NCBI GenBank assembly: GCA_038087875.1
Contig: CM075988.1
Span: 9,240,001 to 9,304,000 of the forward strand
DNA length: 64,000 nt
Source: Malacoraja senta
Taxonomy: Eukaryota
Direction: 5' to 3'
Shown here: positions 4,553-63,709 of the stretch, piece after piece
Position numbering within the stretch: position 1 is the first letter of the stretch
Layout of the letters: every line of letters begins with the position of its first letter
Position numbers and translations under genes: made by a program
The notes under the pieces: generated by a model
The model's database searches: none
What the model was told of the DNA's origin: nothing
Seen by the model: the letters and a program-made list of their open reading frames with translations, nothing else

Positions 4553-5524
4553 ATTAATAATAATAATTCATTTTATTTACTGGCGCCTTTCTAAAACCCA
4601 AGGACACCTTACAAGGCATAGAATCTCAAAAATACAAAACACATAATCGGAATAAATTAAATATAAAAACACCACAGTACACAAATCAGGGACAGAATTC
4701 AATTTCAAAAGCACAAAAAGAAAATAAGAAACACAATTTGAAGAGAGAGCAGCGGCGACCAATTCGCGCCAGCGTCCACTCTCCCCTCCGACCGCCATCT
4801 TGCACACAGACTAACAGGCACAGCACACAGAATCATCCCCCCACAATGGTTACCACTGTGGGGGAAGGCACAATGTCCAGTCCCCAACCCAGTTCTCCCC
4901 AGAGTCAGGCCCAATGAGGCCTCCACAGTTGCCTCTACAGAGGCCCGATGTTCCTGGCCGTCGGGAGAGTCCTCGCAACGGCTGGAACGACCGGTTTCCC
5001 AGCGGAGTCGATGGCACCTGAAGCCGACAGGGCCGCGCCGAGTTGGAGCCACGATGCTCCCGATGTTGGAGTCGGCGCCGCCGCCCGCGGCTGGTCGCTC
5101 CGCAGTCCCGCAGCCCGGAGGTGTTGATCTCGGCGGTCAACGCATACCGGAGCTCCGGCGCATCGATCCAGCGCAGCCACCCAGGCAAGGCATCGCCTGC
5201 TACGCTTCCCGATAGCGCTCCAGCGCTGTGCCGCCACCGAAGCTGAAGGTGCTGGGCGGTCCCCGTCAGGAAACGGCGCTCCATGCCCGCTGGTAGGCCA
5301 CGAGGACGGGTCGACGAGGCAGCCTGGTGAAAAAGCTGCCTCACCGACCAGGTAGGGACCCAGAAATAGTTTCCCCCTTACCCCCCCACATTAAAAGTCA
5401 AAATCCCCCAAACAAACAAAGAAATAAAAAAAGCTAAAACTAAACAAAAAGTGAATTTGACGGACGGCTGCTGTTTAGCAGCCGTTCCTCCAAGATGGCG
5501 GCTCCAAGCATGTTGCGCCTTTGA
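4553..5524 (-). mobile_element. GC-rich non-coding retroposon with L2-like 3' tail (copy A)
   Basis: 8-bp TSD tgagtata (4545-4552, 5525-5532); minus-strand end gtaaggtgtccttggg...gaaaggcgcc..aataaa..(tta)n. Confidence 0.85.
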
Positions 5525-6528
5525 TGAGTATAGGAGCAGGGAGGTTCTACTGCAGTTGTACAGGGTCTTGGTGAGACCACACCTGGAGTATTGCGTACAG
5601 TTTTGGTCTCCTAATCTGAGGAAGGGCAATCTTGCCATAGAGGGAGTACAGAGAAGGTTCTCCAGACTGATTCCTGGGATGTCAGGACTTTCATATGAAG
5701 AAAGACTGGATAGACTCGGCTTGTACTCGCTAGAATTTAGAAGATTGAGGGGGGATCTTATAGAAACTTACAACATTCTTAAGGGGTTGGACAGGCTAGA
5801 GGCAGGAAGATTGTTCCCGTTGTTGGGGAAGTCCAGAACAAGGGGTCACAGTTTAAGGATAAAGGGGAAATCTTTTAGGACTGAGATGAGAAAAACATTT
5901 TTTACACAGAGAGTGGTGAATCTCTGGAATTCTCTGCCACAGAATGTAGTTGAGGCCAGTTCATTGGCTATATTTAAGAGGGAGTTAGATGTGGCCCTTG
6001 TGGCTAAAGGGATCAGGGGGTATGGAGAGAAAGCAGGTACAGGATACTGAGTTAGATGATCAGCCATGATCATATAGAATGGTGCAGGCTCGAAGGGCTG
6101 AATGGCCTACTCCTGCACCTATTTTCTATGTTTCTGTTTCTATGTTTCTATAACAGTGGCACTCTGCATATCCACTTCAATTAAAATGCAAATGCTACAG
6201 CAACTCCATATGCATTTGCAAGTGTGGAAATCAGGAGGTTACTGTCACTGTACAATTCACTCCTTATCTGACTACCTTTTTTCTCCTTTTCACCTTTAGC
6301 CTTTTTCACCTACTCCACCCATCTGCCATTCAAAACCCACCTCGTCTGTATCCACCTATCACTTGCCAGACTTTGTCCAACCTTTAGTCATACAGTATGG
6401 AAACAGGCCTGTCTGGCAGCTTGTTCCATACACCCACCACCCTTTGTGTGAAATAGTAACCGCCTCAGATTCCTACTAAATCTTTTCCCCGTCACCTTAA
6501 ACCTTTCTTTTCCAGATTAAGAAACAGT

Positions 6529-6621
6529 CTGAAGAAGGGTTTCGGCCCGAAACGTTACCTATTTCCTTCGCTCCATAGATGCTGCTGCACCCGCTGAGTT
6601 TCTCCAGCATTTTTGTGTACC
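6529..6621 (+). mobile_element. 93-bp Penelope-terminus-derived insertion beginning at a hammerhead core
   Basis: 12-bp direct repeat ttaagaaacagt (6517-6528, 6622-6633); the insert starts ctgaagaagggtttcggcccgaaacgtt. Confidence 0.8.
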
Positions 6622-10930: not shown

Positions 10931-11304
10931 GTTGGATAACTCTCTGACTCTATGTGTCTGCAACTTGTACTTAGGATGGCTAAAGGTGCTGCATTCCCAA
11001 TATAGTACTTCAGAGCGATAAGGAAAAGAAACTACAGATGTTGGTAAACTGATATAGAAACAGAAATAAGATATAGAAACAGCCTGCGACCCAGGTAACA
11101 TCCCTGTGGAGAGGGATGTGGAAGGTGCTTCTCTCTCTGTTGATGCTGCCTGGCCTGCTGAGCATTTCTGGCAATGTATATCTTTTCTTTGGATTAATTG
11201 TGAGGAAATTAAAAGATACAGCACTCAAGTTACAACACCAAAATTTGCACACGGCAAAGTCCCACACAAAAATAATGTGACAACAATGCCAAATAAAGCA
11301 TGAA

Positions 11305-11795
11305 ACAGTGGTAGAAGATGCTGCTTTACAGTACCAGAGACCCAGGTTCAATCCTCGCTCCAGGTACTGTCTGTACGAAGTTAGTACATTCACCTGTGAC
11401 TGCGTGGGTTTTCTTCGGGTGCTCTGGTTTCCTTCCACATTCCAAAGACGGGCAGGTTTGTGGGTTAATTGGCTTCTGCAAATCGTCTCTAGTGTGTAGG
11501 ATAGAACTAGCGTACGGCTGAACAGAAGGCTGTAGAAGCCAAGTCAATGGATATTTTTAAGTTGGAGATTAATAGAATATTGATTAGTTCGGGTGTCAAA
11601 AGTTATGGGGAGTAGGCAGGAGAAAGAGGGTTGAGAGAGAAAGATAGATCAGCCATGATTGAATGGCGGAGTAGACTTGATGGGCCAAATAGCCTAATTC
11701 TGCTCCTTTAACATGAATATGACTGATCGCTGGTTGGAGCGTAGTGAGGTAAAGAGCATGTTTCCATGCTGTATCTTTAAACTAAACTAAACTAA
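11305..11795 (+). mobile_element. V-SINE split by a CR1 3' fragment (~11522-11721)
   Basis: SINE body 11305-11520 resumes at ~11722 (tgatcgctgg...taaactaaac). Confidence 0.75.
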
Positions 11796-12304
11796 GCTGA
11801 AGACACCAGGAGAGCAGACCTACCTTGTTTAAAGATAGTAGAATGTAACAATGAGTAACCACCTCTGAGCTAAGACACGGTTTAACTTCCCATTGGGATG
11901 CAAGCAGAAGTCTCCACGTGGCGCATCCCGGGCAATGCTGACGACAGAAACTGTACCACAGTGACTGACTGAAGTAGCCAATTCTGCAACCACCGACCGT
12001 CAACCGTCACTGACCGACCGGAAAGACATGATATAGAAGATGGCCGGACACGAGGAAGAAGAACTTCCCATTTGAAATAAGATCTTTGATAATGTAGTCC
12101 TTCCTTAACCTTCAATTTATGCCTTTATCACCTTGACCCCATGGCTTACTAGTTTGTTGGTTGCACAAATATGTTAATTCCATTGGTGAACATATTGAAA
12201 TCTCTTTGTTACTTTGGTTCACAAAATAACTTTTGTTATTATGCAAGAAATAATCACATAATGTCTTGCTCAGAATGTGTCCACTCAGAGGGAATAAAGG
12301 AAAT

Positions 12305-12616
12305 TTATTTCAGTGTAGTTTAGAGATTCAGCGTGGAAACAGGCCCTTTGGCCCACCAAGTCCATGCTGACAAGCGATCCCACTAACACTATCCTACACA
12401 CACTAAGGACAATTTAACTTTTTTACTGAAGCTGATTAACCTACAAACCTGTGCATCTTTGGAGTGTGGGAGGAAATTGGAGCACCCGGAGAAAACCCAT
12501 GCAAGTCACTGGGAGAATGTACAAACTCCGTACAGACAGCAGCCTCGGTCAGGATCGAACCCGGGTCTCTGGCGCTGTAAGGAAGCAACTGTATGGCTGC
12601 GCCACCATGCCGCCCC
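12305..12616 (-). mobile_element. V-SINE (HE1-like)
   Basis: Reverse complement of the SINE pattern seen at 9179. Confidence 0.9.
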
Positions 12617-13109
12617 AAGTCTTATGCCACAGTGTTGTAGCCTGCTTCTGATTTCTGGTCCTGCTGTGGAACAGAGTGGAGACATATAGAAATGTAGGAG
12701 ACAGTGACACTAAATGCAGGCTACAAAGGCACTTACATGCAATTGCACATAGAGCCAAGAGCATTGACGTGGCACTATAAATAGGACTTGTTATCATTAA
12801 CACTGTGCAACATATGGGTACCTGATAGCATTTTATCAAAATGAATGGGTGCCAAAAGCATCAAAGGCTAAAGCAAAGACCTCATAAAGGTATATGCTGA
12901 ATATGAATGATTTACATCAAAAAAGTACATTCTGAGGTTGACCTGAATAACCAGGAAAATAAGTGGCATTTGACACTTTGCCACACAAATGTCCAAAACG
13001 GAATTGAACCACCTTTCTTTGAATTTAAATGGAGTTTTATCACTGAACCCCCCTTTGACATCACCTTCAGTGTTATTAGTAATTTGATATAAAACTGAAC
13101 AAAATGACA

Positions 13110-13865
13110 GAAGTCACAAAATGTTGGAGTAACATAACGGGACAGGCAGCATCTCTGGAGAGAAGGAACGGGTGACATTTTGGGTCGAGACCCTTCTTCA
13201 GACAGAGTCAGGGGAGAGGAAGAAAGAGAGATATGGAAGGGTAAGGTGGAAAACACAGATCAAAGGGGACGATGGTCAAGGAAATGTGAAATGGTACATT
13301 GTTAGCTGAGGTGAGGGTGACCACGCGGCATACAATCAGTATTATTTAATACGATACGATGGCACTTTATTGTCAGACCAAGGTTTGAAATTTGTTTTTG
13401 CAAACAGCCATACAATAAAATAAAGAACACAACACGCAATAGAGTCCAACATAAAACATTCCCACACAGCAGAATCAAAATGTTTCCCACTGTGAGGGAA
13501 GGCACCAAAGTCAGTCATCTTCCTCGATGTTCCTGATGTTCACCCGTGGTCGGGGTCTGCTGTCGCTGCTAATCAGGAGGACAGTGGAACTAATCGTAGA
13601 ACAAGGATGGGGAGGAACAGAGGGAGGGAGAGCAAGGGTTACTTAAAGTTAGGGAAATCAATCATCAAATTGTTGTGTTGTAAACTGCCCAAGCGAAATA
13701 TGAGGTGTTGTTCTTCCAATTTGTGTTGGGCCTCACAATGATAGTAGAAGAGACCCAGGACAGAAAGGTCAGTATGGGAATGGGTGGGGGAGTTAAAGTG
13801 TTTAGCAACCGGGAGATCACGAGGCCTAGACAGACTGAGCGGAGGTGTTCAGCGAAACAATAGTT
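13110..13865 (-). mobile_element. Penelope-like element 3' fragment (end of GIY-YIG region plus hammerhead terminus)
   Basis: Minus strand encodes KLEEQHLIFRLGSLQ; hammerhead module at ~13171-13204; interrupted at 13351-13569. Confidence 0.8.
13351..13569 (-). mobile_element. 5'-truncated member of the GC-rich retroposon family (copy D)
   Basis: taat on both flanks (13347-13350, 13570-13573); tail gacaataaa..(atcgt)n; hairpin 13459-13500 followed by ggca. Confidence 0.65.
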
Positions 13866-13974
13866 CAGAGGCAGAGTAATCTGTGTTTAATGGCTCACCT
13901 TCTGATTTCTAAAGATTTTTCCATATCTGTAAGAATACAAGTCAAAACTGTGAAATAATTCTCTCTGCTGGTGT

Positions 13975-14170
13975 AGTTTAGTTTAGTTTAGTTTAGAGAT
14001 ACAGCGTGGAAACAGGGCTCTTGAGCCTACCGAGTCTGTGTGGACCAGTGACACTAGCTACATACTAGGGACAATTTACAATTTGTACCAAGCCAATTAA
14101 CCTACAAACCTGGACATCTTTGGTGAGTGAGAGGAAAATGGAGCACCTGGGGAAAACCCATGTGGTCACA
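13975..14170 (-). mobile_element. Partial V-SINE
   Basis: SINE tail and central domain in reverse orientation. Confidence 0.8.
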
Positions 14171-14695
14171 GGTGGAGGGACAGGTAGTGTCGAGGAAGCA
14201 GGGAGTCTGCAGAAGGACTTGAACAGGTTGGGAGAGTGGGCAAAGAAGTAACAGATGGAACACAGTGTTACAAATTGTGCGGTCATGCCCTTTGGTAGTA
14301 GGAATAAAGGTTGGAGGTGCAAAGGGACTTGGTAGTGCTGGTGTAGGATTCCCAAAAGGTTCATTTGATAGTTGAATTGGTAGTAAGGTAGCCAAATGCA
14401 ATATTAGCATTTATTTCGAGAGGACGAGAATATTAAAAAAAACAGTGATGTAAGGCACTGGTCAGACCACATTTGGAGTATTGTGAGCAGTTTTGGACCC
14501 CATAACTGAGGAGGGATGTGCTGGCATCAGAGAGGGTCTGGAGGAGGTTTACTAGAATGATCCCGGTACATGGATAGGAAAGGTTTCGAGGAATATGGGT
14601 CGAATGCAGGCAGGTAGGACTAGTGTAGATGGGGCATCTTGCTTGACATAGACCAGTTGGGCCAATGAGCCTATTTCGGTGCTGTATGACTGTGA
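14171..14695 (+). mobile_element. Degenerate CR1 ORF2 C-terminal fragment plus tail
   Basis: LQKDLNRLGEWAK and VRPHLEYCEQFW remnants. Confidence 0.85.
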
Positions 14696-15533
14696 TTATT
14701 AGAATTCCTGGGATGGAGATAAGGATTCCGTGATGATATATCAGGGATTTGGCAGCAAGGAATTTCTCACATTCTCCATATTTCTCTCACTCAACCCAGA
14801 AGTTGTGAAGCATTGAAAAACACAAGTCACATGTTTGTATGAAACAGTGCTGAACAGATTCTTAAACCCACCATGTCCATGTTGACCATTGTAATTAACA
14901 ATGTTGGTCCTACATTTGACTCATAGCCTAAATTATGTGATATTCTCTTCCATCCAATAGGTGTCCATGGAAGCCTGATGCTGTGGTTAACTGTACTCCC
15001 ATACCATGCATATATCCTGATTAAGAAATTAACTTCACATTCTAAATAAAACACAAAGTACCAGAGTAACTCAATGGCTCAGACAGCATCTCTGGATGAC
15101 ACAGATAGGCAATGTGTTGAACTTGGACCCTTATGCAGATTGAAGAAGGATTCTGATCCTAAACAATGCCTATGTTGTCTTCCACAGAAGTGGCCTGACC
15201 CACTGAGTTACTTTTGTTTTTTAGAAGGAACTGCAGATGCTGGAACAATCGAAAGTAGACAAAAATGCTGGAGAAACTCAGCGGGTGAGGCAGCATCTAT
15301 GGAGCGAAGGAATGGGTGACGTTTTTGGTCGAGACCCTTCTTCAATCTATCACTGAGTTACATTGGCACTTTGTGTTTTACTCAAGATTCCAGCATCTTG
15401 TGTCATGTGTCTTCAAAATCTTAATAATGTTTTTGAATGGTGTCCTGTCATTATGATTTCCCCACTCTCCTTAAGGATCCGCATAGTTTAGAATTACTCG
15501 CAAATTTTCTTTTCTCATTAAGCAGCTCACGAA

Positions 15534-15838
15534 GGGCGGCACAGTGGCGCGGCTGGTAGACTTGCTGCCTTACAGTGCCAGAGACCCGGGTTCGATCCTG
15601 ACCTTGGGTGCTGTCTGTGTGGAATTTGCACATTCACCCTGTGACGGGATTTCCTCCCACATCACAAAAATGTGCGGGTTAATCAGCCTCAGTTAATGGC
15701 CTCTAATATGTAGGAAGAGGATGAGAAACCTAGAGGATGATAACATAGAACTAATGTGAACAGGTGATCGATGGGCAACTTGGAGTAAGCGGGCTGAAGG
15801 GCCTGTTTGCACACTGTATCTTTACATTCAACTAAAAA
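15534..15838 (+). mobile_element. V-SINE (HE1-like)
   Basis: gggcggcacagtggcgc...gggttcgatcc head and CR1-like tail. Confidence 0.9.
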
Positions 15839-16371
15839 AAACCTGTGGTATCTCATGAGAGCTGGGAAAACTCAGGGCTCTCAACCAAATTGAAGGCTTC
15901 AAGCGTAATTGAATAGTGGGCTGCTATTTAGGGAATCATTACTCACTGCTGTATGCTTCAGCTCCAGGCAATATTTGCACTGTACATATAAACATGAAAC
16001 CCAAATGTAACAAAATAGACCAGAGGAGTTAACACAATTGTGAGCTGAAAGCTGCATATTGGTTGCAAGGAATAAACAATATTTAGTGCACAAGTGAGGC
16101 CAGTTATCCTGTATTTTTTTTTAAATAATGGACTAGACAGAGGGAGTCAATGATTTAGAAAAAGCAAACATGTGCCTTGAATATTTTTCCCACCTCTTGA
16201 ATCAGAAGCTGCAGGTTTCAAACATGTCCAGGCTCTCCAGCAAGGAAAGAATAGCACTTTGACCCTTAAATCTTTGTCCACATCCACGTGTCTGGGTGTG
16301 GGTGTTGTGTCAGTCACCATTTCAAACCCCCTCCCACAGCACAGCCATATTTTGAAGCATGGATAGTGTGG

Positions 16372-16652
16372 TTTATTTTAGAGATACAGCGCGGAAACAA
16401 GCTCTTTGGCTCACCGATACCGCACCGGCCAGCGACCCCCACACATCATCACTTATCACATTACATTTTATACCAAGCCAAGTATCCTGCAATCCTGTAC
16501 GTCTTTGGAGTGTAGGAGGAAACCGAAGATCTTGGAGAAAACCCACGCAGGTCACGGGTGCAAACTCCGTGCAGACAGCACCCACAGTCAGGATAAAAGC
16601 TGGATCACTGGCGCTGTAAGGCAGCAACATTACCGCTGCGCCACCGTGCCGC
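16372..16652 (-). mobile_element. V-SINE (HE1-like)
   Basis: Reverse complement of the SINE pattern. Confidence 0.9.
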
Positions 16653-16944
16653 TCAAGGAGGGAATGTTCATGTTGCTGCAGTGTTGCTGAATACCTACTG
16701 AACCCATTCACTGTTGTGCAATAGTCTCCATCATAAAGCATGGGGATAGAGACAACTTCTCTGGAACAACAACAATCGCGAGGAAACCTAACTCTCTGCC
16801 TCCCTCTTGTCGGGTCAGATAGAATGAAGGCTTGTGCCCAGCGTATTGTTGATTTTTGGTTATGCACAAGTCTTCCTTGCTTCAGAAAGATTGTCCTATG
16901 ATTCTCCCAAGTCACTCCTTTAGTTAGTTGAGTTGAGTAGGGGT

Positions 16945-17160
16945 TGGAGCGTGGGGGTGGAGGGGAGGCTGGTTTGCGTGATGGTCAGCAATGCATTCAC
17001 AACTCGCTGCAATTTTTGACAGTCTTGGGTGGAGCAGTTGCCAAACTAAGTCGTAATGCATCCAGACGGGATGCTTTCTCCAGTGCCTCTGCAGAGGTTG
17101 ATAAGAGTCATTGGAGATATATTGCCTACTGAGGAAGTAGAGGCATATGTGTGCATTCTT
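16945..17160 (-). mobile_element. Rex1/Babar-like LINE remnant
   Basis: TLINLCRGTGESIPSGCITT.FGNCSTQDCQKLQRVV resembles the Rex1 RT C-terminal motif. Confidence 0.7.
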
Positions 17161-18166
17161 GTTTGTAGTTCTGTGGAAACTGTGCAGTATGACAAAGGGT
17201 AAGATAGCTGTACAGCACAATGACCCTTAAGCATCCATTGAAGCCCCCCACAATGGTCCTGGTAGGTATTCCTTGATGCATCACTACAAGGTTCTTGATG
17301 GTCATCCTTAGTGAAAATAAAATAAACGGTTAAATAGCATGTAGCTTTACTTGCATTAGTGTTATTGCATTTGTATTAGTGGTTGGAGAACATATTGTTA
17401 TTGATGATAAGAAATTAGAAAGTGCGCACAATTTCACGGGTCAGAATTTGTGTAAAGATTTGACCGTTGCGAGTGGAATTTCAGAGTAGCACGGTAACTG
17501 GGACTGTGCTGCCCCCCCTGTGCACAAGTAAATAAACACAGATTCACCATCCTCTGACTAAAGATATTACTTCTCATTTTCTTCCTAAAGGAACGTCCTT
17601 TAATTCTGAGGCTATGACCTCGACCTCTAGTGGGACAGGCTTGAGGGGCTGTGGCCTTACCCTGCTCCTATTTTCTGATGAGTTCAAATCCCACTTCGCT
17701 GCAGGAGAATTTAAATTCATATGATTAATTAAATTTACAGAGCCAAATAAAATCTTTCTTGTTTATAGTAAACCGCCTTCCACTCTTTGAATCATTATAA
17801 GTCCCATAGGGAAACAAACCTGCCTAACCTACATTCAACAGCAGACTCACCAACATTAACTGCCTTCTGAGTTCAGGGGCAGTAAAGTTGTAGACCATAA
17901 ATGCCAGAGATATCCCTATCCTGGGAGAGAAGGAATAGAAAATGTTAGAGTAGTGTAATTTAATGAAGTACTGGGAACAACTGCATAAATAACACTGACT
18001 AACTATTTCTGGCTGTAAAGCAATCTGAGAGGCGCAATGTAAATCCTAGCTATTTATTTTCCTTTTTGAATTTTTATTAACCAGCAGCAGCACTCTCAAG
18101 ATTCAGACCTGAGGATCCAGACCCATTTGCGAAACCACTGTATCTCATGTGGATTGATACCTCACA

Positions 18167-18489
18167 GGTGGCACGGTGGCGCAGCGATAAAGCTACTGCC
18201 TTGCAGCGTCAGACACCCGGTTTCAATCCCGACTACGGGTGCTGTCTGTAAGGAGTTTGTACGTTCTCCCCGTGACCGCGTGGGTTCTCTCCGAGATCTT
18301 CGGTTACCTCCCACGCGCCAAAGATGAACAGGTTTGCAGGTTAATTGGCTTGGTAAAATTGTATAAACATAAAATTGTCCCTAGTGTGTGTGGGATAGTG
18401 TTAATGTGCGGGGATCGCTGGTCGGTGCCGACTCAGTGGGCTGAAGGGCCTGTTTCCATGCTGCATCTCTAAACTAAAACTAAACTAAA
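18167..18489 (+). mobile_element. V-SINE (HE1-like)
   Basis: Full SINE pattern with (taaac)n tail. Confidence 0.9.
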
Positions 18490-22764: not shown

Positions 22765-23790
22765 CAGTCAGATGGAAAATGTCCTCATTCTTTTGGGAAC
22801 GGGGGTTCCCCTCTTCCATCATAGATGAGGCCCTCGCACGTGTCTTCTCGGTACCCCACAGTTCCGCCCCTGCTCCCCCTCCCCCTAGTGGCAACAGGGA
22901 CATACCCTTACCTTTCACTCCATCAGCCGTTGCATACAACACATAATCCTCTGACATTTTCGCCACCTAACAACGGAATCCCACCACTAGTCACATCTTC
23001 CCATCTTCACCCCTTTCCGCCATCTGCAGTGACTGTTCTGTTCACAACTCCCTGGTTAACTCATCCCTTCCCACCCCAACTACTTCCTCCCCAGGTCCAT
23101 TCTTCTGCAACCGCAGAGGATGCAACACCTGCCCCTATACCTCCTTCCTCAATTCTGTCCAGGGATCCCGACAGTCCTTTCAGGTTAGGCAAAGGTTCAC
23201 TTGCACCTCTTCGAACCTCATCTACTGTAACCATTGTTCTAGATGTGGGCTCCTAAATATCAGCAAGACCAAAAAGTAGACTGGCCGATCGTTTCGCTGA
23301 ACACCTTTGCTTAGTCCACCTGGACCTGCCTGATCTGATTGCTGAACACATTAATTCCCCTACCCATTCCCACACTTACCTTTCTCTCCTAGGCCTCTTC
23401 CGTTGTCAGAGTGAGGTCAAATACAAATTAGAGGAACAGCGTTTCATATTTCGCTTGGGCAGCTTATAACCCAGGGGTATGAGAAGTGATTTCTCTAACT
23501 TCAAGTAACCCCTGCAGTCCCTCTCTCTCCATCCCTCGCCCACCTAAGTCACACCAGCTTTTTGTTCTCGCCTAGCAAACAACCACCAATGGTCTGTTTC
23601 CTTTATCACTGTTACTTTTTTGCATATATTTCATTCATTTATTCTATATCTTGTTACATCATCGTCTATATCTCTCGTTTCCCTTTCCCTTTAGTCTGAA
23701 GAAGACGCGAAACATCACCCATTCCTTATCTCCAGAGATGCTGCCTGTCCCGCTGAGTTACTCCAGTGTTTTGTGATTATCTTCAGAGTT
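22765..23790 (+). mobile_element. Penelope-like element 3' part with decayed GIY-YIG endonuclease
   Basis: RGFPSSIIDEAL; CNRRGCNTCPY; FQVRQRFTCTSSNLIYC..CSRCGLLNISKTK; DRFAEH; KLEEQRFIFRLGSL; ends in a hammerhead-type terminus at ~23694. Confidence 0.9.
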
Positions 23791-24384: not shown

Positions 24385-25530
24385 TTACACTAAAAGTGAT
24401 GGGTGCCTGGAATGCGCTGCCGGGGGTGGTGGTGCAGGCAGATATGATAGTGGTGTTTAATACAATACAATACAATACAATACCATTTATTGTCATTTGA
24501 ACCTCAAATGAGGTTCAAACGAAATTTGGTTTCTGCAGTCTTACAAACAAGTAAAAAGAACCAAGACACAACACAATTTACACAAACATCCATCACAGCG
24601 AATCTCCTCCTCGCTGTGATGGAAGGCAAAGTCTTATCTCTCCCCTGCACTCCCCATTCTCCTCCCGATGTCAGAGTCAGAGCCCCCGGCGGGCGATGGA
24701 AAATAAGTCCCGCGGCCATTAAAGCCGCGCCGGGCGATGCAAGGCCGCCCTCCGGGTCTGGATGTTGGAGCCCCCGGTAGCGCTAGCAAGTCCCGCGGCT
24801 ATTAAAGCCGCGCCGGGCGATGTTAGACCAAGCTCCAGGTCATCTTCAACCCCGCAACTCGGGCGGGAGAAGTTGCCGTTGCGGGAGCCCTGAAAAGCAG
24901 CTCCCACCAGGGACCGGCGAGCTCCCGATGTCACCGTCCACCAGACCTGTGGCTGGAGCCTCCGAATCTCCGGGGTCGGGTCACAGCCGTGCGTCACCGC
25001 AGCTCTCCACGCTCCGAACTCGGCCAGCTCCACGATGGTGAGTAGTCCGCAGGCTCCGCGACTGGAGCCCCAGGTCGTTCCGGTTGGAGGCCGCTCCACG
25101 GTGCTAGGCCCCAACGACAACGGAGACCCGACAGAGAAAGGTCGGGTCCTCCATACAGGGAAGAGATTTTTTTAAGTTTCCCCCTCGCCCCCCACACATA
25201 CACAGTTAAAAACAATATTAAAAAACACAAACAACTACATTTAACGACAAAAAATTTTTAAAAGACAGACGGACTGCAGTGGAGCCGCTGCCGTTAGGTG
25301 CCGCCACTTCCTTTCTACCACTGCACAATCACAATTGTTTAAGAAGCTTTTAGAGAGCCACATGGATATGCTGGGGCCAAAACACCCTCGGCCACTGCTA
25401 CACATCCATAAAAAGGGATATGGACCACATGCAGGCAGATAGGGTTAGTTTAACTTGGCATTATGTTCGGCACAAACATTGTGGGCCGAAGAGCCCTTTG
25501 CTGTACTTTTCTATGCTCTATGTTCTAAAC
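24385..25530 (+). mobile_element. CR1 3' fragment interrupted by copy B
   Basis: WNALPGVVVQA remnant; the sequence rejoins at tgtttaagaagctttt. Confidence 0.75.
24461..25335 (-). mobile_element. GC-rich non-coding retroposon with (tattg)n tail (copy B)
   Basis: 7-bp TSD tgtttaa (24454-24460, 25336-25342); clearly homologous to 62839-63709. Confidence 0.85.
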
Positions 25531-26505: not shown

Positions 26506-27109
26506 CTGATTTAGAAAACCCAATTGCTCAACATCTGGCTGACCAGGTAAAGGTTACTAAGTTCCCTTCTCACTCACTGAGGCCCTGATCGCCATGTGTT
26601 TTTCACACGCACCAGAAACCAAGTTGATTTGCTCCATTCCACTCAACAGAACTGTCTTCCTACTCATAAGGGCCCTAGTTCCTATGCTTCCCTACCTAAG
26701 CAGGTCCCCAGTTCCTGCACTGCATTTAAACTTTAAAAAAAGACTCAAAGTGCTGGAGTAACACGACAGATCAGGCATCATCTCTGGAGAACATGGATAG
26801 GTGACGTCACCTATTCTTGTTCTCCAGAGATGTTGCCTGACCCGGTGAGTTATTCCTGCACTTTATGCTTTTTTTTTAGTAATCCAGTGTTTGTAGTTCC
26901 TTCTTTCTCGATTTACATTTAACTAGATACCTTGTATTTATGAGCATACAAATAGCCAATTAATAAAAAAAATAACATCATATAGTTCAGAAAATCTGTT
27001 AGACCAGCACCACCAAAATCATACCAGATCATTGGTTTACTGTGTAGAGTGCAGGTAAGAATACACTATAGTCTAGGAAGGAAGTGTTTAAAGGAAGTTT
27101 AAATCAAAG

Positions 27110-27640
27110 ATGGACACAAAATGCTGGAGTAACTCAGCGGGACAGGCAGCATCTCTGGACAGAAGAAATGGGTAACGTTTCGGGTCGAGACCCTTCTTCA
27201 GACTGAAGGGGAAGGGAAGATATAGAGATAAGGAAGTGTATGGTGTGAGAACAAAACATCAAAAGAGGGTGGAGATCAAGGAAAATGTAGAATAAACCAT
27301 TGTTAACTAGGAGAAGGCAACAAAAAAGCAAACAGAGATAAAATGTAATCAGGGACAAGTCAGACGGGTTGGAGAACTAGGAAGGGAGAGGGATGGAGAG
27401 AGAGAGGGAAAGCAAGGGTTACTTGAAGTTAGAGAAGTCAATATTTATTCTGCTGCCCAAGCGAAATATGAGGTATTGCTCCTCAAATTTGCACTGGGTC
27501 TCACTCTGACAATGGAGGAGACCAAGGACAGAAAGGTCAGTGTGGGAATGGGAGAGGGAGTTAAAATGTCTAGCAACTGGGAGATTGGGTAGGTTTAGGG
27601 GGACTGAGTGGAGGTCTTCAGCGGAAAGATCGCTGAGCCA
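27110..27640 (-). mobile_element. Penelope-like element 3' fragment
   Basis: Minus strand KFEEQYLIFRLGS; homologous to 13110-13865 and 23250-23790. Confidence 0.85.
27171..27204 (-). ncRNA. Minimal type I hammerhead ribozyme motif (Penelope-associated)
   Basis: Reverse complement agt-ctgaaga-a-gggt-ctcg-accc-gaaac-gtt-acc: CUGANGA and GAAA boxes, 4-bp helix II, palindromic ACGT helix III. Activity not tested. Confidence 0.75.
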
Positions 27641-31871: not shown

Positions 31872-33489
31872 TAGATGGTATAGCATGAAAACAGGCCCTT
31901 CATTCCTCCAAGTCCATGCCGACCATCTGCAGTTCCTTGTCTCTATTATTCAATCTACTTATTTATATAATTTTACATGGAATTGAATCAATTCATTAAA
32001 TATTTGGATTTTTTTCTTTCAGAAATGAGGATTGTGAAATCACTCAATTGTGTAAAAAACCACCTGCTTTCCTTATCAATACTTCCTTTGTGCGGTGAAT
32101 TCTTTGTGAGTCAAGTCAACATTGCAGTGTAAGGTTTTTGAGGGATGAGCAGTAATGGCAGTAATGCTTAATCCCTTAAATGAACATGGGAACTCAATGT
32201 TTGTGCCATCCAACAATTCAGATGCATCACTCTATATATTTGTTTCTGTCATTGATAAATATGGTGAATAATTGAAAACCTATCCATTTGGGATATCATG
32301 CAACATGGTTTTCCAATTAATTTCCATTATCCCCTCTCTCTCTTTGATCATCCAATCAGTCTACTAACAAGCTTAATAATATGTCTTCAATTATATTTGA
32401 CCTAAATTATTTGGAACCTTTTGTGTGTTTTCTAACATAGCAAGTAATAGATCACATAATCTTTATCCTGTTTACGATTTTAGCTGTTGTCTCAAAATTA
32501 AATTAATGGTATTCATTTAACATGAGTCTGAAGAAGGGTCCCGAACCAAACAATTGGCTTATCTATTCCTTCCACTGATGCTGCCTGATTGCTGAGTTCC
32601 TCCAGCACTTTATGTTTTGACACTGAATAGGTTGGCTTCAAATGAGCTCCAAACTTTCCCCTTGGATGATGATTCATCCTTGAATATAACTTTGAACAAC
32701 TTGGCTCCAACATATAATGCCAATAGATTTTACAACTGCTCTCCATTTTTCAGCTTTGTTAAATAATGAAGTTAACTTTGTAAACTTCCAAACACCAGGA
32801 ACAACTTATGAATCAAGAGAGTTGTGAAAGATTGCAGGTGAAACATTTGTGTAATTTCTGCAATTAGTTCTTCTAAATCCATGAGCATGAACACGTTGTG
32901 AAAGGTTTGATTTGTCTATATTGGTATTCTTTGTTCTAGTTTTGTCTCTTTGCTTATGTTAGCTGTAGTGAATTCAGTCCCCTGTCTGCTGCCAGTGTCT
33001 CTGGAATGTGAAATATGTTCTTGTCAACTGCAAAGACCCAGAATAAGTAATTACTCAATGAATTTGGCATTTTCTAACTGTGATTTGGAGTATAACCTAC
33101 TAGAGTTTTGAAAATTAGTTTTTAAGTTGTACTTTCTATGGTAACATTTTCCAGACTTTCAAAAGTTAAGAGAGTCAAGAGTGTTTTATCGTCTTATGTA
33201 CCAAACAATTAAATTCTTACTCGCAGCAGCACAACAGGTTTGTAAACCAAGTACTCAATAGATAACATAATAGTAAGATTAAACGAGAACTTACCAGTTT
33301 GAAGTTTGATCTTTATTTTATGAGGAGTTACGATGAGGGACTACGTGAAGAAGACTCCGTCCAGCCGCACACGTGTCAATCTTCAAAGCAGCGGTGTGAA
33401 ATCACCGAAAATAATTACTGAAGTATGATAGTAAGATACGTGAAGACTAGAACTACCAGTTGACCTTGATGAGAGGTGGGAGCGGAGGG

Positions 33490-35200: not shown

Positions 35201-35250
35201 CTACCTGGTAGGTAGATTGCCGAAAGCCAAATGTTTCTGGTAATACACCA

Positions 35251-35383
35251 AGTCAAGTCAAGTCAAGTCACATTTATTTATATAGCACATTTAAAAAACA
35301 ACTCTCGTTGGCCAAAGTGCTTTACATTTGTTATAAGAATAGCATAAACAAAACAAACTACATACATATATACATGTAGCCTT
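35251..35383 (-). mobile_element. L2-type 3' tail fragment inserted in the DIRS RNase H region
   Basis: TSD cacca (35246-35250, 35384-35388); minus strand tgtaaagcactttg...gctatataaataaa(tgact)n; IWTW|CITR frame rejoins. Confidence 0.8.
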
Positions 35384-36165: not shown

Positions 36166-36199
36166 AAAATGGGCCATTAGCAAACCCCCAGACCCACCT

Positions 36200-37514
36200 A
36201 CCTTGGGGTTTGCCGATGGCAAATGTTGTCCCCTGCTCTTAATGGGAATACTGTAACCTCCACGCGTCCCAGGAGCAGTGCGCCAATAACGCATATATGG
36301 GAAAGACTGACTTGTTCCTTCACCGGCCCCAGTCACCACACGTCGGTAGGGAAACTGTCTTCGAGTTAATCTGCCAAGCACCGGTGGTTTCATCATCCCC
36401 ACGGTTTTTGCTTCTTCATTCAGGTCTTTTACCCTTTTGGCTAGATTCTTTCCAAAAAGCAGATTAGGCAATTGATTATTAGATGGTTTACAGAGCCCCG
36501 CAAACTTAGGGTGAATGTTAGGTCTTATAGCACTTTTACGAATACAGTTTATTTCAAAGTGCGCACTACACATGAGTGCTAAGGCATCCTGTTGTGTTGC
36601 GGACACATGCTCTTCATCCAAGCCTCTGGCGAAGGCCTTATGCCTGACCCCAGCAATTTCAACACCCATTGTAATTTCATTTCTTGTGCGCGTACTGCTA
36701 TGCCCAAATAGCCCCATATTACATTATTCACCGCTGGGACTGCTGGCAGTGCGCAATTCTGCGGGGTTTCATATTTTTTGACAGTCTCATCCATGGTCAA
36801 TTCCTGGAGCTGATGGGAGAGCAAGTAATTTATAGTCATTGCTAATTCATCTCCCAATGGTTCCCCTGTTAGTCTGGGAACAGCAATTTTTTGTGCCAGA
36901 CCTGGTATTTTAGGCTCTGTTATTGGGCTCTGGTCCTCATATGATTCGTCATCTGAATCTTGCTGTTCCTTCTCATGTTGGGGGAGATCTGGCATCCCTG
37001 CTTCAGGTGTTTCTAGCACTGGCTCTCCCATAGGCCTACGCATAGTAAACCCTTTACCAGATTCTCCCCACGCGGGCTATCCTATAGGCCCACGCATAGG
37101 CAGCCCTCTTTCAGGTGCTGCTGGCGCTGGCTCTCCTGTAGGCCAACGCTTATACTGTCTTCCTTCAGACATTGTTAGCGCTGGCTCTCCTGTAGGCCAA
37201 CGCGGGCTGTATTCCTCCTGAAGTGGGTCTTGATAAATCATCTTCCCCATGAGGAATTCTAGACTAGCGACCCGAGCAGCCATAACTTCTGCCTGAGGCG
37301 GGTTCTCCGGGTCTGACTCCTCAGAGTCTACTGGCCGCACGGACTTTTGCCCGGCCTTGCGCCCTAATGGTGCTGCAACGGTACTTTCTACCGCATCTGG
37401 AGTTGATGGCCTCGCTGCCACCGACTCCTCAAACGGGCGCCCGCTTCCCTCAGACCCGCGGTCTTCTTGAGGTTTACCTGTGGTACGCCTCCCCCCTTTA
37501 CGCCCTCTCTCCAT
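36200..37514 (-). pseudogene. DIRS gag-like ORF, broken into three frames
   Basis: ORFs 37077-37514, 36579-37043 and 36046-36717; DALALMCSAHFEINCIRK..IRPNI...LFG is shared with copy 2. Confidence 0.8.
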
Positions 37515-37809
37515 ACTAACTTGTGTTGTCCCACAACTACAAGTCTACTCGGAGGAAAGCTACCTGAAAACGAAAGTGAAACCACTTACCTTCAGGCTTT
37601 TACACTTACCGCTTGGAGGAGCCTCTACACACGGTCGCTGCGCTATGCGTCTGACGATATGACGCGTGTGCGGCTGGACGGGGTCTTCTTCACGCAGTCA
37701 CTCACGTGACTCCGAAGTAAAATAAACAACCAAATAAATGTTCAAAAATTACAACAGCAAAAAAAAACTGTAAAAACAAAACCAAACCTGAAATCCTTAG
37801 TGCAACCAA

Positions 37810-45033: not shown

Positions 45034-48000
45034 AATAGTAAGATTAAACGAGAACTTACCAGTTTGAAGTTTGATCTTTATTTTATGAGGAGTTACGTTG
45101 GTGATTACGTGAAGAAGACCCGTCAGGGCGCATGCGCGTCAATCTTCAAAGCAGCGGTATGAAATCACAGACAACACCATAATTGAAGTAACATATTAAG
45201 ATGATCAACATGAGAACTACCATTATGACCTTTTTTCTATGAGAGAGGGTTGGGCGTGGCGGCCACGTAATCACCAACGTAACTCCTCATAAAATAAAGA
45301 TCAAACTTCAAACTGGTAAGTTCTCGTTTAATCTTACTATTTTTCTTCGGAGTCACGTGAGTGACTACGTGAAGATTTTAAAGCTCTGTGATTTTTATGC
45401 CGCAGATCAAAATCCCGGCTTCTCACTGCATCGATTGACTCTGAGTATCATCAATAATGCTGTAAACATGACATTGCATATCATGCAAAAACAAAACAGT
45501 TTTATTTTTGGTCATAAAACAACCAATAAACCCTCTTAATTTAGGGGCAACAAACGAAACAGAATTAAACAGTATTGAAAACAGACTTTAAACAATAGCA
45601 ACAGCACTCAATATTGAGTGGGCAAACAGCCCTCCATCGGCAATCGGCCGATGGTAGTATTGCTGAAACACAAGTTCATTTTTCCAACCTGCGGCTTTTA
45701 ATATATGGTCGATGGGAACGTCCATCGCCCTGACCGTGGATGTTGCTACTGCGCTAGTGGAATGAGATGTAAACACATAAATGTTAATTCCTGCCTGAAC
45801 CAACTCTTGCTTTAACCACGTTGAGATAGTCTGAACTGCCACTCTTTTATGTTGGCTTCTTGTAACTGACAAATAATCCTGTTTCATCTTGTCTTAAAGC
45901 CCTTGTGGCTTCAATGTAATGTAACAAATGTGTCCTTACACATAAACATGGAGCTGTAGGATATGTTGAGAACACAATCGTAAATCCTGTCACACCTGGC
46001 CTGCTTTGTTTGAGCAGGTCATAAATATAAAACAGAACATTCTCTGTAGTCACTTCCATTCTATCTAACTGAAGTTTTTGCAAAGTCTGCACTCTCTGTA
46101 CTGACACCAATGCCATTAGCATAGCCAATTTCATGGTTAATTTTAACAAAGTTATAGACGTGACAGGGACCCAATGAAGTAGCATGTTAAGAACAATGCT
46201 TACATCGCAGATTACCATATACCTAGGCTGAGGCGGTTTGGAATTAAAGATTCCTTTCATCAACCTAGATATGAGAGGGTGAGAACCTATACTTTGTGTC
46301 CGTGCACCTATTACAAGATATGCCGACAAAGCACTTTTAGCTGTATTGATAGCACTATAGCTAAGACCCTCATCATAATAAAGTGTAGATAAAACTTTAA
46401 CACATTTTCCATAACTACAGTATCATATTGAATATTCTTTTGAACACAATATTGTTCCCATTTAAAAAAAAAAAAAAATTTCATAAGTCATATACTGCTT
46501 TTGAGTACTCTTTCTCCAGGCTGCAGTGAGTATATCCACCGTTCGCCTTGAAAGTCCTCGACTAATGTAAGGCATTCTTAAAAAACCTGCAAATTAACAG
46601 ATCAATACGATCACATAACGGATGAACTTAACGCGTTACTGGATACTCCAGCAAATTCCTACTGTTTGGAATCAGCAAAAGGAGGTTGGATCGCTATCTG
46701 TAACATCAAAGGGAACCATGGTTGAATCGGGCAATTTGGAATCACCAAAACCCCTGAAGCGGCATCCTGCTTGATTTTCTCAAACACCGACCTATGAGGC
46801 AGAATGGTGGGAAAATGTACACAAACATATCATCCCAATTTAGTGAAAAAGCATCAATTGCCACTGCCCCTGGATCTGGTGCCCATGAAACATATTTTGG
46901 CCTTCCATATAGAAGTACTATGTTCTTGAACACATCCTGGTTCAAGATCCACTCTGTGTTATCACGAAATTTTCGTGAGCTGCCATCTGGTACTACATTA
47001 AGTTTCCCTGGCAGATAGATAGCTCCAATCCAAATCTCTCTATCTCTACTCCAGGTCCAATTGTATTTGCCAACCTGTCACATGATAACAATTTGATTCC
47101 ACCCATGTGATTCATATCAGCAACTGCTGTAGTGTTGTCTATTTTGCACTGCATATGCAAACTAGTTTAGTTAGTGCCATAAGCCTTGAGTCCATAAAAT
47201 ACTCTTGGTTAATTCCCCATGTTTGCAGAAGCAATGTTCATCTGTCTCCACCGCTGGATCTTGTAGCAGTAGCACCCTACCCAAGTGCTCTGACATCTGT
47301 CTGCAAATCATGGAAGCTTGGTCCAATAACACTTTGGAACTACTAGTGGACACATGCTGAATCCACCATTGTACATCAGCAACAGCCTCTATTGATAGAA
47401 GCATAGGTCTATTATAATGACCCTAATGTATCCTCAGTGCTTGTTCCTTTGACCTTTGTAATTGTAGATAATAAAGTGGCCACTATTGAACTGCTGGAAA
47501 TGCTGCCAGCAATTTCCCCAGCAGACTCATCACCTGGCTAATTGAAGGCTGTGTGTCAGCAATTAACTTGATCCAGCTCTTAATTAGCTCTACCCTTTTT
47601 TGCCTGGGCAAGGTCACAATCATGTTGATTAAGTCTATTGTGAACCCAACTAGTCAATTTGTGTCACAGGTATTAATTTAGATTTCTATGGATTCCATCT
47701 TAAAATGTCTATACCATACAAAAGGGTTAAGCCTATTCATGTCCTGTATAATTCTGCATCCCCATCCTTTTTTGGTCTGGGAAAGATATTGGACACAAAC
47801 TGATGGCTTTGGTAAACTGCCTTAGCAATTACACCTTTATTACATAAGCTTGCAAGTTCCACCTAAACTTCCAATTGTTCAGTGATACTGGTCAAACTCC
47901 TTCTTGGAACATGTTGCATGGGTAAATCAGAATTTGCATTAAGCTTTATTCGATACCCTTCAATAATCTTCAGTATAAACATATCTGAGGTAAACATTTA

Positions 48001-59849: not shown

Positions 59850-61045
59850 AACTTTGTACCCCTGCACCCATACCTCTACAAGTTCTGAGCCCGTCATTAT
59901 GTCGAGCTCTTCTTCTGTTACCTCCGCCTCTGGGCATATTTCTCTGGCCAGGAATTCCCTCCCAAGATTAATTTCTTCATCCCTGCCCAAGATGAAGCTT
60001 TCCAGTCTAGGACATCCAAGATTGACATCTGTGGGATCCCCCATATGGTTGTGGTTGGAGCCATCATCCATATCTTCTCTGTAGTTCTGCTCTCACTCTC
60101 CCTCCATGCAGATGAAATAAAGATAGAGTTCCCCTGGTCCTCATCTTTTAACCCATCAGCTCCCACATCTGATGCATCATCCTCCAACATGATCCCACCA
60201 CCAGTCGCATTTTCCAATCCCCACTATTTTCCACTTTCCATTTGAGACCACAACTCATCGTTTGGCTCATCTCTTCTACTCAACCCATCCCATCCCCGGG
60301 TATTTTTTTCCTGCAACTGCAGGAGATATGACACCTATTCCTACACATCCTCGATCACTTTCATCAAGGGACCCTAGCAGTCCTTCCAGGTGAGACAGAG
60401 GTTCACGTGCAACCCTCTGTAACCTCATCTACTGCATTTGGAACTCCAGATGTGGCCTCCTTTACATCAGCGAGACCAAGCGTAGACTGGGTAAACATTT
60501 CGCCAAACATTTTCGCTCGGACTACTTAGGGCTGCTGGATCTCCCAGTTGCTAACCATTTTAACTCTCCTTCCCATTCCCATACTTACCTTTCTGCCCTG
60601 GGCCTCCTCAAGAGCCGGAGTGAGGCCTCATGCAAACTGGAAGAAGAGCACCACATATTCCGCCTGGGTAGTCTTCAACCCAGTGATGTGAACACTGAAT
60701 TCTCCAAATTCAAGTAATATTCCTACGACCCCTCCTCTCTTTCTAGTGTCCTACCCCACCCCAATGCACCAACCACCCCATCAACCTGCTCCTTCCCTCT
60801 TCTCCACAGGCTCATCTCCTATCACCAAGTCCCCTTTATCCTATCTCTTTTCACTCCAGTCTTCTTCTACCCATATCTCTCCCTCCCATTTTATATTCCA
60901 CGACTCTTCTTCACCCTTTTGCAAATCACCCCCTCATCTGCATCTATCCATCACTTACCTGACGTTGTCCCATCCCCATCTCTATTTTCCAGCTTTCTCT
61001 ATCCCCCCTCTCCCTCCCCCTCCCCCTCCCCATTATTTTGAAGAT
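59850..61045 (+). mobile_element. Old Penelope-like element fragment
   Basis: FQVRQRFT, NLIYCIW.SRCGLLYISETKRRLGKHFAKH and KLEEEHHIFRLGSLQP (GIY-YIG region). Confidence 0.85.
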
Positions 61046-62838
61046 TCCCAACCTGAAATGTTGTGTTTAAGAAAGAACTGCAGTTGCTGACAAAATCAAA
61101 GGTAGATACAAAACGCTGGAGTGGAGAAACTCAGCGGGTAAGGCAGCATCTATGGAGAGAGGGAATTGGCAACATTTCAGGTCAAGTCTGAAGAAAGGTC
61201 TCGACCCGAAACATCGCCAATTCCTTCTCTCCATAGATGCTGCCTCACCAGCTGAGTTTCTCCAGCTTTTTGTGTCTATCAACCTAAAATGGTGTCTGTC
61301 CATTCCTTTCACAGATGTTGCCTGACCCGTTGAGTTCCTCCAACATTTTGTGTTTTACTCAAAATTCCAGCATCCGTAGTTTCTCATGAGGGACAGACCA
61401 TTGAATTCCATCCACTACAAACCCATTGACCCCCACAGCTACATTGACCTCACTTATATTGACCTTTCTTATGAGTTTCTAAATAGAGGGAATGGTTGTC
61501 AATTGTTTTTACTCTTGCAATATTTCACAATTGAGTTCAATTGAGCAAATATTGAAAGACTCTGGTTAGGGATTCCCACAACATAAAGTCACACCATAAG
61601 GTGCTAATTAATAACAATTAATAAGCTTGCATTGTCTGTGCAGTCTGAAGAATGCAGGTACAATGTTAAGCTGCATTGACACCCCGCACATAAAGTAGGA
61701 AAAATAATTTAGATTTGATCCTTCGACTTTGATCCTAGCAGCTTTCATGGAGTTCGAATATTCTAACATGCTTTTTCAGCACCAGAATATTTTTAAACTG
61801 TAGCTTCTGTTGGAATGTTCAAAATAAGCCAAGGTGTAAATAAATCTCTGCGTAATTCAATTTTGGAAAGCAAGCACTGTTCTAATAAACAACGTGCTGG
61901 AGGAATCCAGCGGGCCTGGGAGTAGCTGTGGAGGGAGATGAACAGACAATGTTTCGGGTTGCGATTGTTCTTCAGAATGATGAAGGAGAGGGGAGATAGC
62001 TGGTGGCATGAAGTGAGGGAATGGGTGGGGTAAGACTGGACAGTTCATAGGCGGATCCAGGGAAGAAGGTTTGGCTTCTTGCATGGATCCACCTATCACT
62101 TACCACATCATCTTTCTACCATTTATCTCCCCCCCATGAGTCTGAAAAAATGTTCCATTGCCTTCCATAAATGTTACCTGGTCTGCTGAGTTTCTCCCGA
62201 ACTTTGATTCTTGCTCAAGATTCCAGTATCTACAGCCTCTCTTGTGTCTCCATTATTCTAAACAAACCACCCTGCATTTTTGCCGATATCTTTCCTAAGA
62301 TGTTGTGCTCAGAACTGCTCATAATACTCTTGATCAAGTTTAAGCAGGCTTTGTAAAGCTGCACCATGGCTTCTGCATCCTTGCATTTTAGAAGGGCCAG
62401 AATTTCATCAGTCCATCTTTTTCCTAAAGGCTAAAGTTATTGAGTCATTGAGACAAACAGCAAAGAAACAGTCTGAGGAAGGATCCTGACACAAAACTCT
62501 CCATGTCCTCCACAGATGCTGACCGACCTGCTGATGTCCAGGACTTTGTATTTTGCTCAATATTCCAGCATCTGCAGTTTCTTGTGTCTCCAGAACAGAA
62601 ATAGGCTCATCAACCCATGACTGCACTACCCATTTCCACTAATCCTACATTAATCCAGTCTGAAGAAGGGTTCCAACCTGTCCATTCCCTCTACAGATGC
62701 TGCCTGACTCGCTAAGTTTCGAGAGCACTTTGTGTTTTGCTACATGAATTCTATTTTATTCTCCCCACATTATCATCAATTTCCTCACAGATTCTACCAC
62801 TCACCTGCACAGAGGATACATTTACGGTAGCCCATTAA

Positions 62839-63709
62839 TTAGATTAGATTAGATTAGATTTTATTACTTTCATTTGAACCTCAGAAAGGCTCAAACGAAA
62901 CTCCGTTTCCACAGACATACAAACACAACAATTCCTACACGACACACAAACAATTCAATTTACAGAAAACATCCATCACAGTGAATCTCCTCCTCACTGT
63001 GATGGAAGGCAAGGTATTTTTCTCTCCCCTGCACCATTTTTCTCCCGATGTCGAAGCCCCCGGCGGGCAATGTTAAGTCCCATGGCCATTGAGGCCGCGC
63101 GGGGCGATGTACGGCCCCGCTCCGGGCCCAAAAGTCACAAGTTGGAGCCCCCGGCGGGCGCTGGAATGTCCCGCGGCCATTAAAGCCAAGCCGGGCGATG
63201 TAAGGCCCCGCTCCGGGTCGTTCCAACCCCGCGACTCGGGCTGGAGAAGTTGCATTGCGGGAGCTCCGGAAAGCGGTCTCTCACCCGGACCCGCGAGCTC
63301 CCGATATCACAGTCCACCGGTCTGCAGCTGCAGCTGGAGCTCTGGAATCGGGCCGCAGCAGCGAGCCACCACAGCTCCCCACGCTCCGAGGCTGGCCAGC
63401 CCCACGATGGTGAGTCCGCAGCTCCACAGGCTCTGCGACTGGAGCCCCCAGGTCGTCCCGGTCGGAGGCCGCTCCATGGAGCTAAGCTCCAACGACAACG
63501 GAGACCTGACAGGGAAAAGGTCAGGTCTCCCGTGCAGGGAAGAGATTTTAAAAGTTTCCCCCTCCCCCCCCCCCCCCCCCCCCCACATATACACAGTTAA
63601 AAACAGTACAAAAAAAACACAAACAATTACATTTAACTAGACAAATATAAAAAAAAAGACAGACAGGCTGTAGGGGCCGCTGCAGTAATCCTGCTCCGCC
63701 ACACTAGAA
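62839..63709 (-). mobile_element. GC-rich non-coding retroposon with (atcta)n tail (copy C)
   Basis: attaa on both flanks (62834-62838, 63710-63714), splitting a SINE; homologous to 24461-25335. Confidence 0.85.

Follow-up and report, generated by a model that had tools for sequence, protein, structure and literature searches.

A non-coding retroposon family in Malacoraja senta, probably built on Rex1 ends around a structured module, with one subfamily that carries an L2 end

How is a repeat that encodes no protein copied, and can it change the enzyme on which it depends? This question is raised by four inserts, here called A to D, on the minus strand of a 64,000-nucleotide (nt) stretch of Malacoraja senta DNA (GCA_038087875.1, contig CM075988.1, positions 9,240,001 to 9,304,000), which is the window of this study: repeat-rich eukaryotic DNA with remnants of CR1 long interspersed nuclear elements (LINEs) as well as many copies of a tRNA-type short interspersed element (SINE). 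The inserts have LINE-derived ends and no open reading frame (ORF), A and B lie between clear insertion footprints, the elements are abundant, and the core of A also occurs with another 3' sequence. We consider it probable that they are an ORF-less, bipartite derivative of the LINE Rex1 with a structured module between its ends, and that one subfamily, represented by A, captured a bipartite L2. The original prediction, made from the letters alone, had proposed a structured RNA module that recruits different LINE enzymes by swapping tails. A non-coding module without a tRNA head does stand before the 3' ends of two LINE groups, but LINE ancestry is present as well, and A received a whole internally deleted L2. 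The four elements are:

4553..5524, minus strand: element A, the whole composite, sitting in ORF2 of a CR1 LINE
24461..25335, minus strand: element B, whole, with a 7-nt duplication (24454-24460 / 25336-25342)
62839..63709, minus strand: element C, whole, with a 5-nt duplication (62834-62838 / 63710-63714)
13351..13569, minus strand: element D, a copy truncated at its 5' side that combines a Rex1-type tail with an A-like hairpin 2 (13500-13459) and lies within a Penelope-like fragment

Coordinates and strand of all four inserts (n=4) were as predicted. They had also been described as flanked by target-site duplications, and this holds for A, with 8 nt (4545-4552 / 5525-5532; the host CR1 ORF ends at 4547 and picks up near 5526), and for B; but the duplication of C is only TTAAT, 5 nt that prolong its own microsatellite, and that of D is ambiguous (4 or 6 nt), two uninterrupted host copies revealing a clean insert of about 220 nt. 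That the four form one family is true in part. B and C share 76.7% identity across 848 nt, and A and D match at hairpin 2 (83% identity along 42 nt, blast E between 1e-4 and 5e-4), the sole clear match of A; between D and C a weak match extends for about 100 nt. A shows no long match to either B or C, and its core is barely similar to theirs (the scores are reached by 36/300 and 1/300 shuffles), so that their common ground is a set of motifs and a predicted fold. The layout described for A, B and C stands, the G-box TGTGGGGGG-N-AGGGGGAAACT being confined to these three in the window (0/100 shuffles reach three occurrences). So does the constant 'aggca' at hairpin 2, which corresponds to the entry motif TGCCTTCCnnCACAG, lies upstream of the hairpin on the element's own strand and occurs four times in the window, in A, B, C and D (chance mean 0.12). 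Because both patterns were taken from the elements themselves, these shuffles show no more than that chance does not produce them elsewhere.

The ends of B, C and D point to Rex1. The relevant features are:

25284..25306, minus strand: B, Rex1 5' signature TGGCGG-N9-GCAGCGGC, followed by a T-rich tract and the G-box (25196-25175)
63676..63701, minus strand: C, Rex1 5' signature TGGCGG-N12-GCAGCGGC, with the G-box at 63587-63553
24461..24628, minus strand: B, hairpin 2 (24623-24589) and Rex1-type tail, with a hairpin at 24522-24493, AATAAA and (TATTG)n
62839..63011, minus strand: C, hairpin 2 (63006-62972) and Rex1-type tail with (ATCTA)n

The window contains TGGCGG-N-GCAGCGGC at two places, once in B and once in C, each time ahead of the T tract. 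By eye, the same signature with N11 spacing opens 5 of the 19 skate Rex1 consensuses that have been published, a set in which six appear 5'-incomplete, as well as the tetra consensus AstMex_Rex1-4 (PMC13343379); such skate-like heads, taken with the CR1 remnants and SINE copies of the window, suggest a cartilaginous fish and probably a ray or skate; our comparison with this published table covers the first 400 letters of each consensus. At the 3' side, the Rex1 end is described in the available part of a review merely as a conserved untranslated region (UTR) with oligonucleotide repeats (PMC6274825). The tail pattern of B fetched 36 loci, of which one, L013, shows an ORF end followed by a microsatellite tail; the two homologues of that ORF end are both proteins with reverse transcriptase (RT) and PF09004. 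The remaining 35/36 lack the microsatellite tail and were put down to chance. The L013 segment (L013:3043-3420) is a 5'-truncated, fish-type LINE end on a contig of an Enterovibrio metagenome-assembled genome, and since such an end lies in a bacterial genome bin the contig is probably host contamination. The resemblance of B, C and D to Rex1 at the 3' end is thus one of motifs, and with the heads lending support we assign their tails to the Rex1 type with moderate confidence.

Element A differs at its tail, as had been predicted (L2-like in A, Rex1-like in B, C and D), and it has two heads:

5391..5524, minus strand: A first head, a GC hairpin (5456-5493) and then a T-rich tract, without the Rex1 signature and with an inverted CCAAGATGGCGG inside
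5368..5390, minus strand: A G-box
4703..4802, minus strand: A second head, the 5' end of an ORF1-less L2
4553..4675, minus strand: A L2 3' UTR, with a stem-loop near 4608-4582, AATAAAA and (TTA)n

The tail pattern of A fetched 8 fish-like metagenome loci, 5/8 with an L2 ORF end upstream. One of them, L005, has an intact ORF of 1063 amino acids with endonuclease and RT; L005:82-3410 is an intact single-ORF L2 in a metagenome contig, on which a further long ORF begins at 5644. No shuffle (0/2000) reached the score of the A tail against the L005 3' UTR, a match that the tails of B, C and D do not have and that is partly circular, since L005 was fetched by the tail pattern. The match at the 5' side is not circular: A 4784-4703 aligns to the L005 5' UTR with a score of 54 (0/3000 shuffles, shuffle maximum 37), compared to 35 for the best of 2087 window tiles and 45 for the best other of 11,362 locus tiles. 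In addition, A 4781-4765 is an exact 17-nt match to the start of PolSen_L2-16, the sole match in the portion of the published table that was compared (PMC13343379), and by eye the ORF start of PolSen_L2-16 resembles that of L005. From these two matches it follows that the last ~250 nt of A are an internally deleted L2, made solely of two LINE ends. A single 8-nt duplication brackets the module and the L2 part jointly, and the L2 part has no duplication of its own. By eye, about 70 hydrophobic codons can also be read without interruption in the L2 part (4583-4801, minus strand), between an ATG in the head and a stop in the tail, an open frame that is probably a by-product of T-richness.

The first head of A aligns with the head of B (0/1000 shuffles reach the score), in part through the T tract. 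At 5489-5524, read on the plus strand, it contains CCAAGATGGCGG reversed, a motif that in the forward direction opens many published Rex1 and L2 consensuses. Given deep coverage in run X1, the reversal looks like a family trait; it may be a 5' end that was inverted, or an antisense promoter.

Four runs of contigs were compared with A and four with B at a cut-off of 80%. A and B are major repeats in several species: run X1 gave 13,331 records on B and 8,637 on A, and B was covered by 11,267-18,412 records in three further organisms, contig depth not being copy number. Coverage of A in X1 is deep in each of its 30 bins. The ratio of depth between the L2 part and the core of A was 0.75 in X1, 0.21 in X7, 0.011 in X12 and 0.006 in X19, differences that may be overstated, as AT-rich sequence could diverge faster and an AT-rich end could drop under the cut-off in distant species; in X12 and X19, which are two other species, the A core is common and the L2 part nearly missing. 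In each of the four runs, 24-32 records exit A directly after hairpin 2 and continue in a different T-rich sequence, similar in kind to what B and D have at this place, and in D itself a Rex1-type tail is attached to a hairpin 2 like that of A. The change of end is located just after hairpin 2. The junction within A is also spanned by a contig of another species (X12 record 9, 4721-4961). The simplest order would be a Rex1-ended ancestor first and the L2 capture later. Tails described as 'interchangeable' overstate this, because the sole partner change in evidence is that from Rex1 to L2.

That the elements contain no recognisable protein was borne out. Pfam gave no match in 6/6 frames, 2/14 of the insertions and deletions between B and C are multiples of three, and protein searches with the module frames returned nothing or two unnamed proteins without RT, and no RT-fused relative. 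A HAL1-like coding remnant was ruled out by the Pfam result and the indel lengths. Likewise, the absence of a tRNA head was upheld, and neither a 5S nor a 7SL head was found: ARAGORN and the suggested Rfam search matched no tRNA or RNA family in the elements, the one hit at E up to 5 being a 41-nt microRNA-hairpin match on A hairpin 1, far under threshold, and the B box was absent from the first 150 nt of A, B and C. The same box scan recovered A and B boxes in the SINE at 12304-12614. Since ARAGORN and Rfam missed that SINE too, the case leans on the box scan and on the heads matching LINEs, and a tRNA-type head was rejected on the absent tRNA match and B box. SINEBase defines a SINE as an interspersed repeat under 1 kb with a tRNA-, 5S- or 7SL-derived head and transcription by RNA polymerase III (PMC3531059). 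A, B and C are short enough (871-972 nt), and the runs hold thousands of their contigs each, contig depth being no copy number; as none has such a head, they are not SINEs by this definition. Against the pattern of an ORF-less bipartite LINE, no protein is present, the 5' end is that of a LINE in B and C (Rex1) and in the 3' part of A (L2) but not in the first head of A, and the 3' end is of the same group, clearly so for A and L2 and at the level of motifs for B, C and D and Rex1. A also has the layout of SINEs in which a GC-rich head precedes a bipartite LINE unit.

Between the ends lies a module of about 550 nt. The body is rich in CpG (observed/expected 0.81-0.90, compared to 0.44 for the window). 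The predicted structural features of the module are:

4876..5364, minus strand: A, predicted four-way junction; closing stem 5364-5350/4890-4876, hairpin 1 5349-5309, domains 5307-4969 and 4968-4894
4836..4870, minus strand: A, hairpin 2 with the conserved TGCCTTCC entry
24636..25167, minus strand: B, predicted four-way junction; closing stem 25167-25153/24650-24636, hairpin 1 25152-25122, domains 25121-24872 and 24871-24657
63021..63545, minus strand: C, predicted four-way junction; closing stem 63545-63532/63034-63021, hairpin 1 63530-63500, domains 63499-63249 and 63248-63040

RNA folding from the G-box to hairpin 2 gave z values of -4.1 (A), -4.2 (B) and -6.2 (C). In all three, a predicted long-range stem runs from just past the G-box to just before hairpin 2 and encloses three tight branches, hairpin 1 and two large domains, with linkers of 0/1/0/3 (A), 0/0/0/6 (B) and 1/0/0/5 (C). 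For B and C, 0/2000 shuffles gave a closing stem as good. The stem arms pair inside a family and far worse between A and B/C, and when the flanks and hairpins of A were held fixed, 4/300 interior shuffles regained the junction topology. Differences between B and C affect 7/78 positions in three anchor stems and 94/491 elsewhere (Fisher p 0.026), and no listed anchor-stem pair is broken between them, in pair counts that leave out automatic alignments misplacing A hairpin 2. The B junction holds two copies of a 54-nt unit (24705-24758, 24788-24841) and that of C two copies of a 77-nt unit. That A, B and C take one RNA fold despite unlike cores is a good prediction from modelling, short of a demonstrated constraint. 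The long-range stem with its four-way junction, the Rex1 5' signature of B and C and the L2 5' end within A are additions to what had been predicted.

Several results weigh against a Rex1-derived family with a structured module, in addition to the limits on contig depth and end ratios given above. The closing stem of A is modest, being equalled in 72/2000 shuffles and by 23/393 other core windows. Covarying hairpins had been proposed, and the stems are indeed replaced between families, but statistical support is missing: the three anchor stems contain two double changes between B and C, each of CpG type, and the strand test was negative (G-U versus A-C columns 14:7, shuffles 163:96). The double change in hairpin 2 is present in 64-73% of depth across four runs. 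The Rex1 signature is absent from the first head of A, three motifs of which are unmatched in the first 400 letters of the published consensuses. As for the tails, we take L013 to be a Rex1 from its C-terminal motif and from PF09004, and when the tails of B, C and D were aligned locally with its 3' UTR the scores were not significant (reached by 248, 88 and 255 of 2000 shuffles), which is why their assignment to Rex1 stays moderate; the proposed comparison of tails with autonomous LINE 3' ends thus succeeded for A with the L2 of L005 and not for the other three. No full-length Rex1 with exactly these ends came from the viral contigs, the plasmids, the genome of L013 or the window, and no contig among the runs bridges a whole element.

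The first alternative is that the module is an independent structured RNA, cellular or parasitic, that freely acquires LINE ends, the Rex1-like head having been added later. The G-box GGGGGAAACT has 0 matches in the visible part of the consensus table, no Rfam family was found, the fold is preserved over unlike cores, and the first head of A is not Rex1-like, all of which would suit such an origin. However, B and C, with a Rex1 head and a Rex1-type tail, follow the plain bipartite pattern, a single partner change is seen, and no stand-alone module free of LINE ends lies in the window; we therefore regard this account as improbable. Searches with the hairpin-2 pattern in metagenome and viral contigs, and with the L2-tail pattern in viral contigs, gave 0 matches.

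No less improbable, in our estimate, is that the module survives from a Rex1 lineage not yet catalogued whose 5' region was long and GC-rich, B, C and D being plain deletion products that inherited their stems. According to the accessible part of PMC13343379, some ORF1-less elements of the CR1 group have repeat arrays near the 5' UTR, and the length of LeuEri_Rex1-7 exceeds that of its ORF by about 1 kb. The C core at 63222-63237 (minus strand) is an exact 16-nt match to the GC-rich 5' region of that consensus, and B matches with 2 mismatches. This 16-mer could be chance or a clue to the source of the module, and with the extra length it keeps some room for a Rex1 origin of the module. On the other side, in the published Rex1 5' ends that carry the signature the ORF follows the T tract directly (PMC13343379 supplement, as far as available), the near-intact skate Rex1 -1, -2 and -12 leave less than 250 nt outside the ORF, too little for the module, and the module frames found no RT-fused protein. 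The original prediction had named as damaging to itself the case of a 5' UTR joined to the 3' end of catalogued LINEs. Half of this was found, because B and C open with a Rex1 5' end; the other half was not, because the first 400 letters of the published CR1-group consensuses gave no match to the ~550-nt module (PMC13343379).

That A is a one-off, a short L2 remnant fallen into the tail of a dead copy whose partner enzyme never changed, would suit the single A copy in the window and the lack of a contig bridging A, and is very improbable given the one duplication around module and L2 part, the deep coverage of 30/30 bins in X1 and the junction-crossing contig of another species.

For the favoured bipartite Rex1 derivative, a mechanism can be outlined. 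An RNA polymerase II transcript would start in the LINE-derived head, perhaps aided by the CpG-rich body, and would end in the LINE stem-loop and microsatellite; the matching LINE protein would then recognise the 3' stem-loop and reverse-transcribe the RNA at the target. For zebrafish L2, strict recognition of the 3' tail stem-loop has been demonstrated (PMC4176376, in the part available), so that a new tail would bring a new partner enzyme, and by this analogy the L2 end of A likely moved the element onto the L2 copying enzyme. A may have arisen through a template switch or through an L2 remnant that inserted into an older tail. Whether the module acts at the RNA level is a tentative matter: the closing stem may pack ~500 nt into a single domain and expose hairpin 2 and the tail, aiding competition in trans for the LINE protein. 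More doubtful is the wider idea that a conserved four-way-junction RNA serves as an adaptor by which an RNA polymerase II parasite hijacks CR1-group LINE proteins in cartilaginous fishes, keeping its fold through sequence turnover, reaching very high copy number and crossing from Rex1 to L2 by way of a gutted L2, as a SINE-like class without a polymerase III head.

Among known systems, primate SVA is likewise a non-coding composite with a GC-rich body of repeated units, and a borrowed LINE enzyme; it has no parts in common with the present elements, in which B and C each have just two copies of a short unit, A has no such copies, and the tails are sequence-specific LINE tails instead of poly(A). 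ORF-less bipartite non-autonomous LINEs are listed, in the available text of Kojima 2018 (PMC5786205), only for RTE, Ingi, Vingi and R2. The RIME, NARTc, Bov-A and Vingi-1_EE derivatives treated there are alike in having LINE 5' and 3' ends, no ORF, proposed RNA polymerase II transcription and mobilisation in trans; here, in contrast, the ends come from Rex1 and L2, and a folded module of ~550 nt lies between the Rex1 ends. The bird elements BuceSINE and ManaSINE2, as far as described in the accessible part of Suh 2016 (PMC4844689), resemble A in that a bipartite LINE unit is preceded by a GC-rich head whose origin is unknown, and have a GGCCCCGG motif in the head; their unit is AviRTE, whereas that of A is L2, and the 'head' of A is itself a Rex1-type parasite of ~700 nt. 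The hagfish SINE1-1_EBu and SINE2-1_EBu exchanged the 3' part for a whole bipartite non-autonomous LINE, with a change of partner, but carry heads of the tRNA or 7SL type and remain inside RTE (Kojima 2020, PMC7245038, in the part available), whereas here there is no small-RNA head and the crossing is from Rex1 to L2. Tail replacement and bipartite parasites are thus already established; the literature we searched, with Dfam, Repbase and most subscription papers outside the search, contains no description of this family or of a bipartite design for Rex1 or L2. If the favoured reading is true, Rex1 and L2 would join RTE, Ingi, Vingi and R2 as sources of ORF-less bipartite LINE parasites, and an element that has no small-RNA head yet switched its enzyme from one LINE group to another would offer a testable case of Kojima's composite-retroposon model. 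Skate Rex1 is put at 6.6% of the genome in the available supplement of PMC13343379, and such elements may be tallied as Rex1 in ray genomes. The predicted fold gives a direct assay of a non-coding RNA competing for a LINE protein.

The surrounding repeats are of other kinds. Related fragments at 13115-13861, 22978-23783, 27097-27632 and 60192-60717 resemble Penelope 3' ends, D lying in one of them; one such fragment ends CTGAAGA..GAAAC, a motif somewhat like a minimal hammerhead. At 33269-37544 and 45034-47684 lie two degraded elements, related to each other and bearing short inverted repeats, with frames like a tyrosine recombinase and an RT; they are presumably DIRS-like. Another, distinct L2-like tail with (GACTT)n, at 35250-35370 on the minus strand, apparently sits inside the first of these. 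The abundant tRNA-type SINE of ~300 nt, with one copy at 12304-12614 and many similar ones elsewhere in the window, we presume to be HE1-like.

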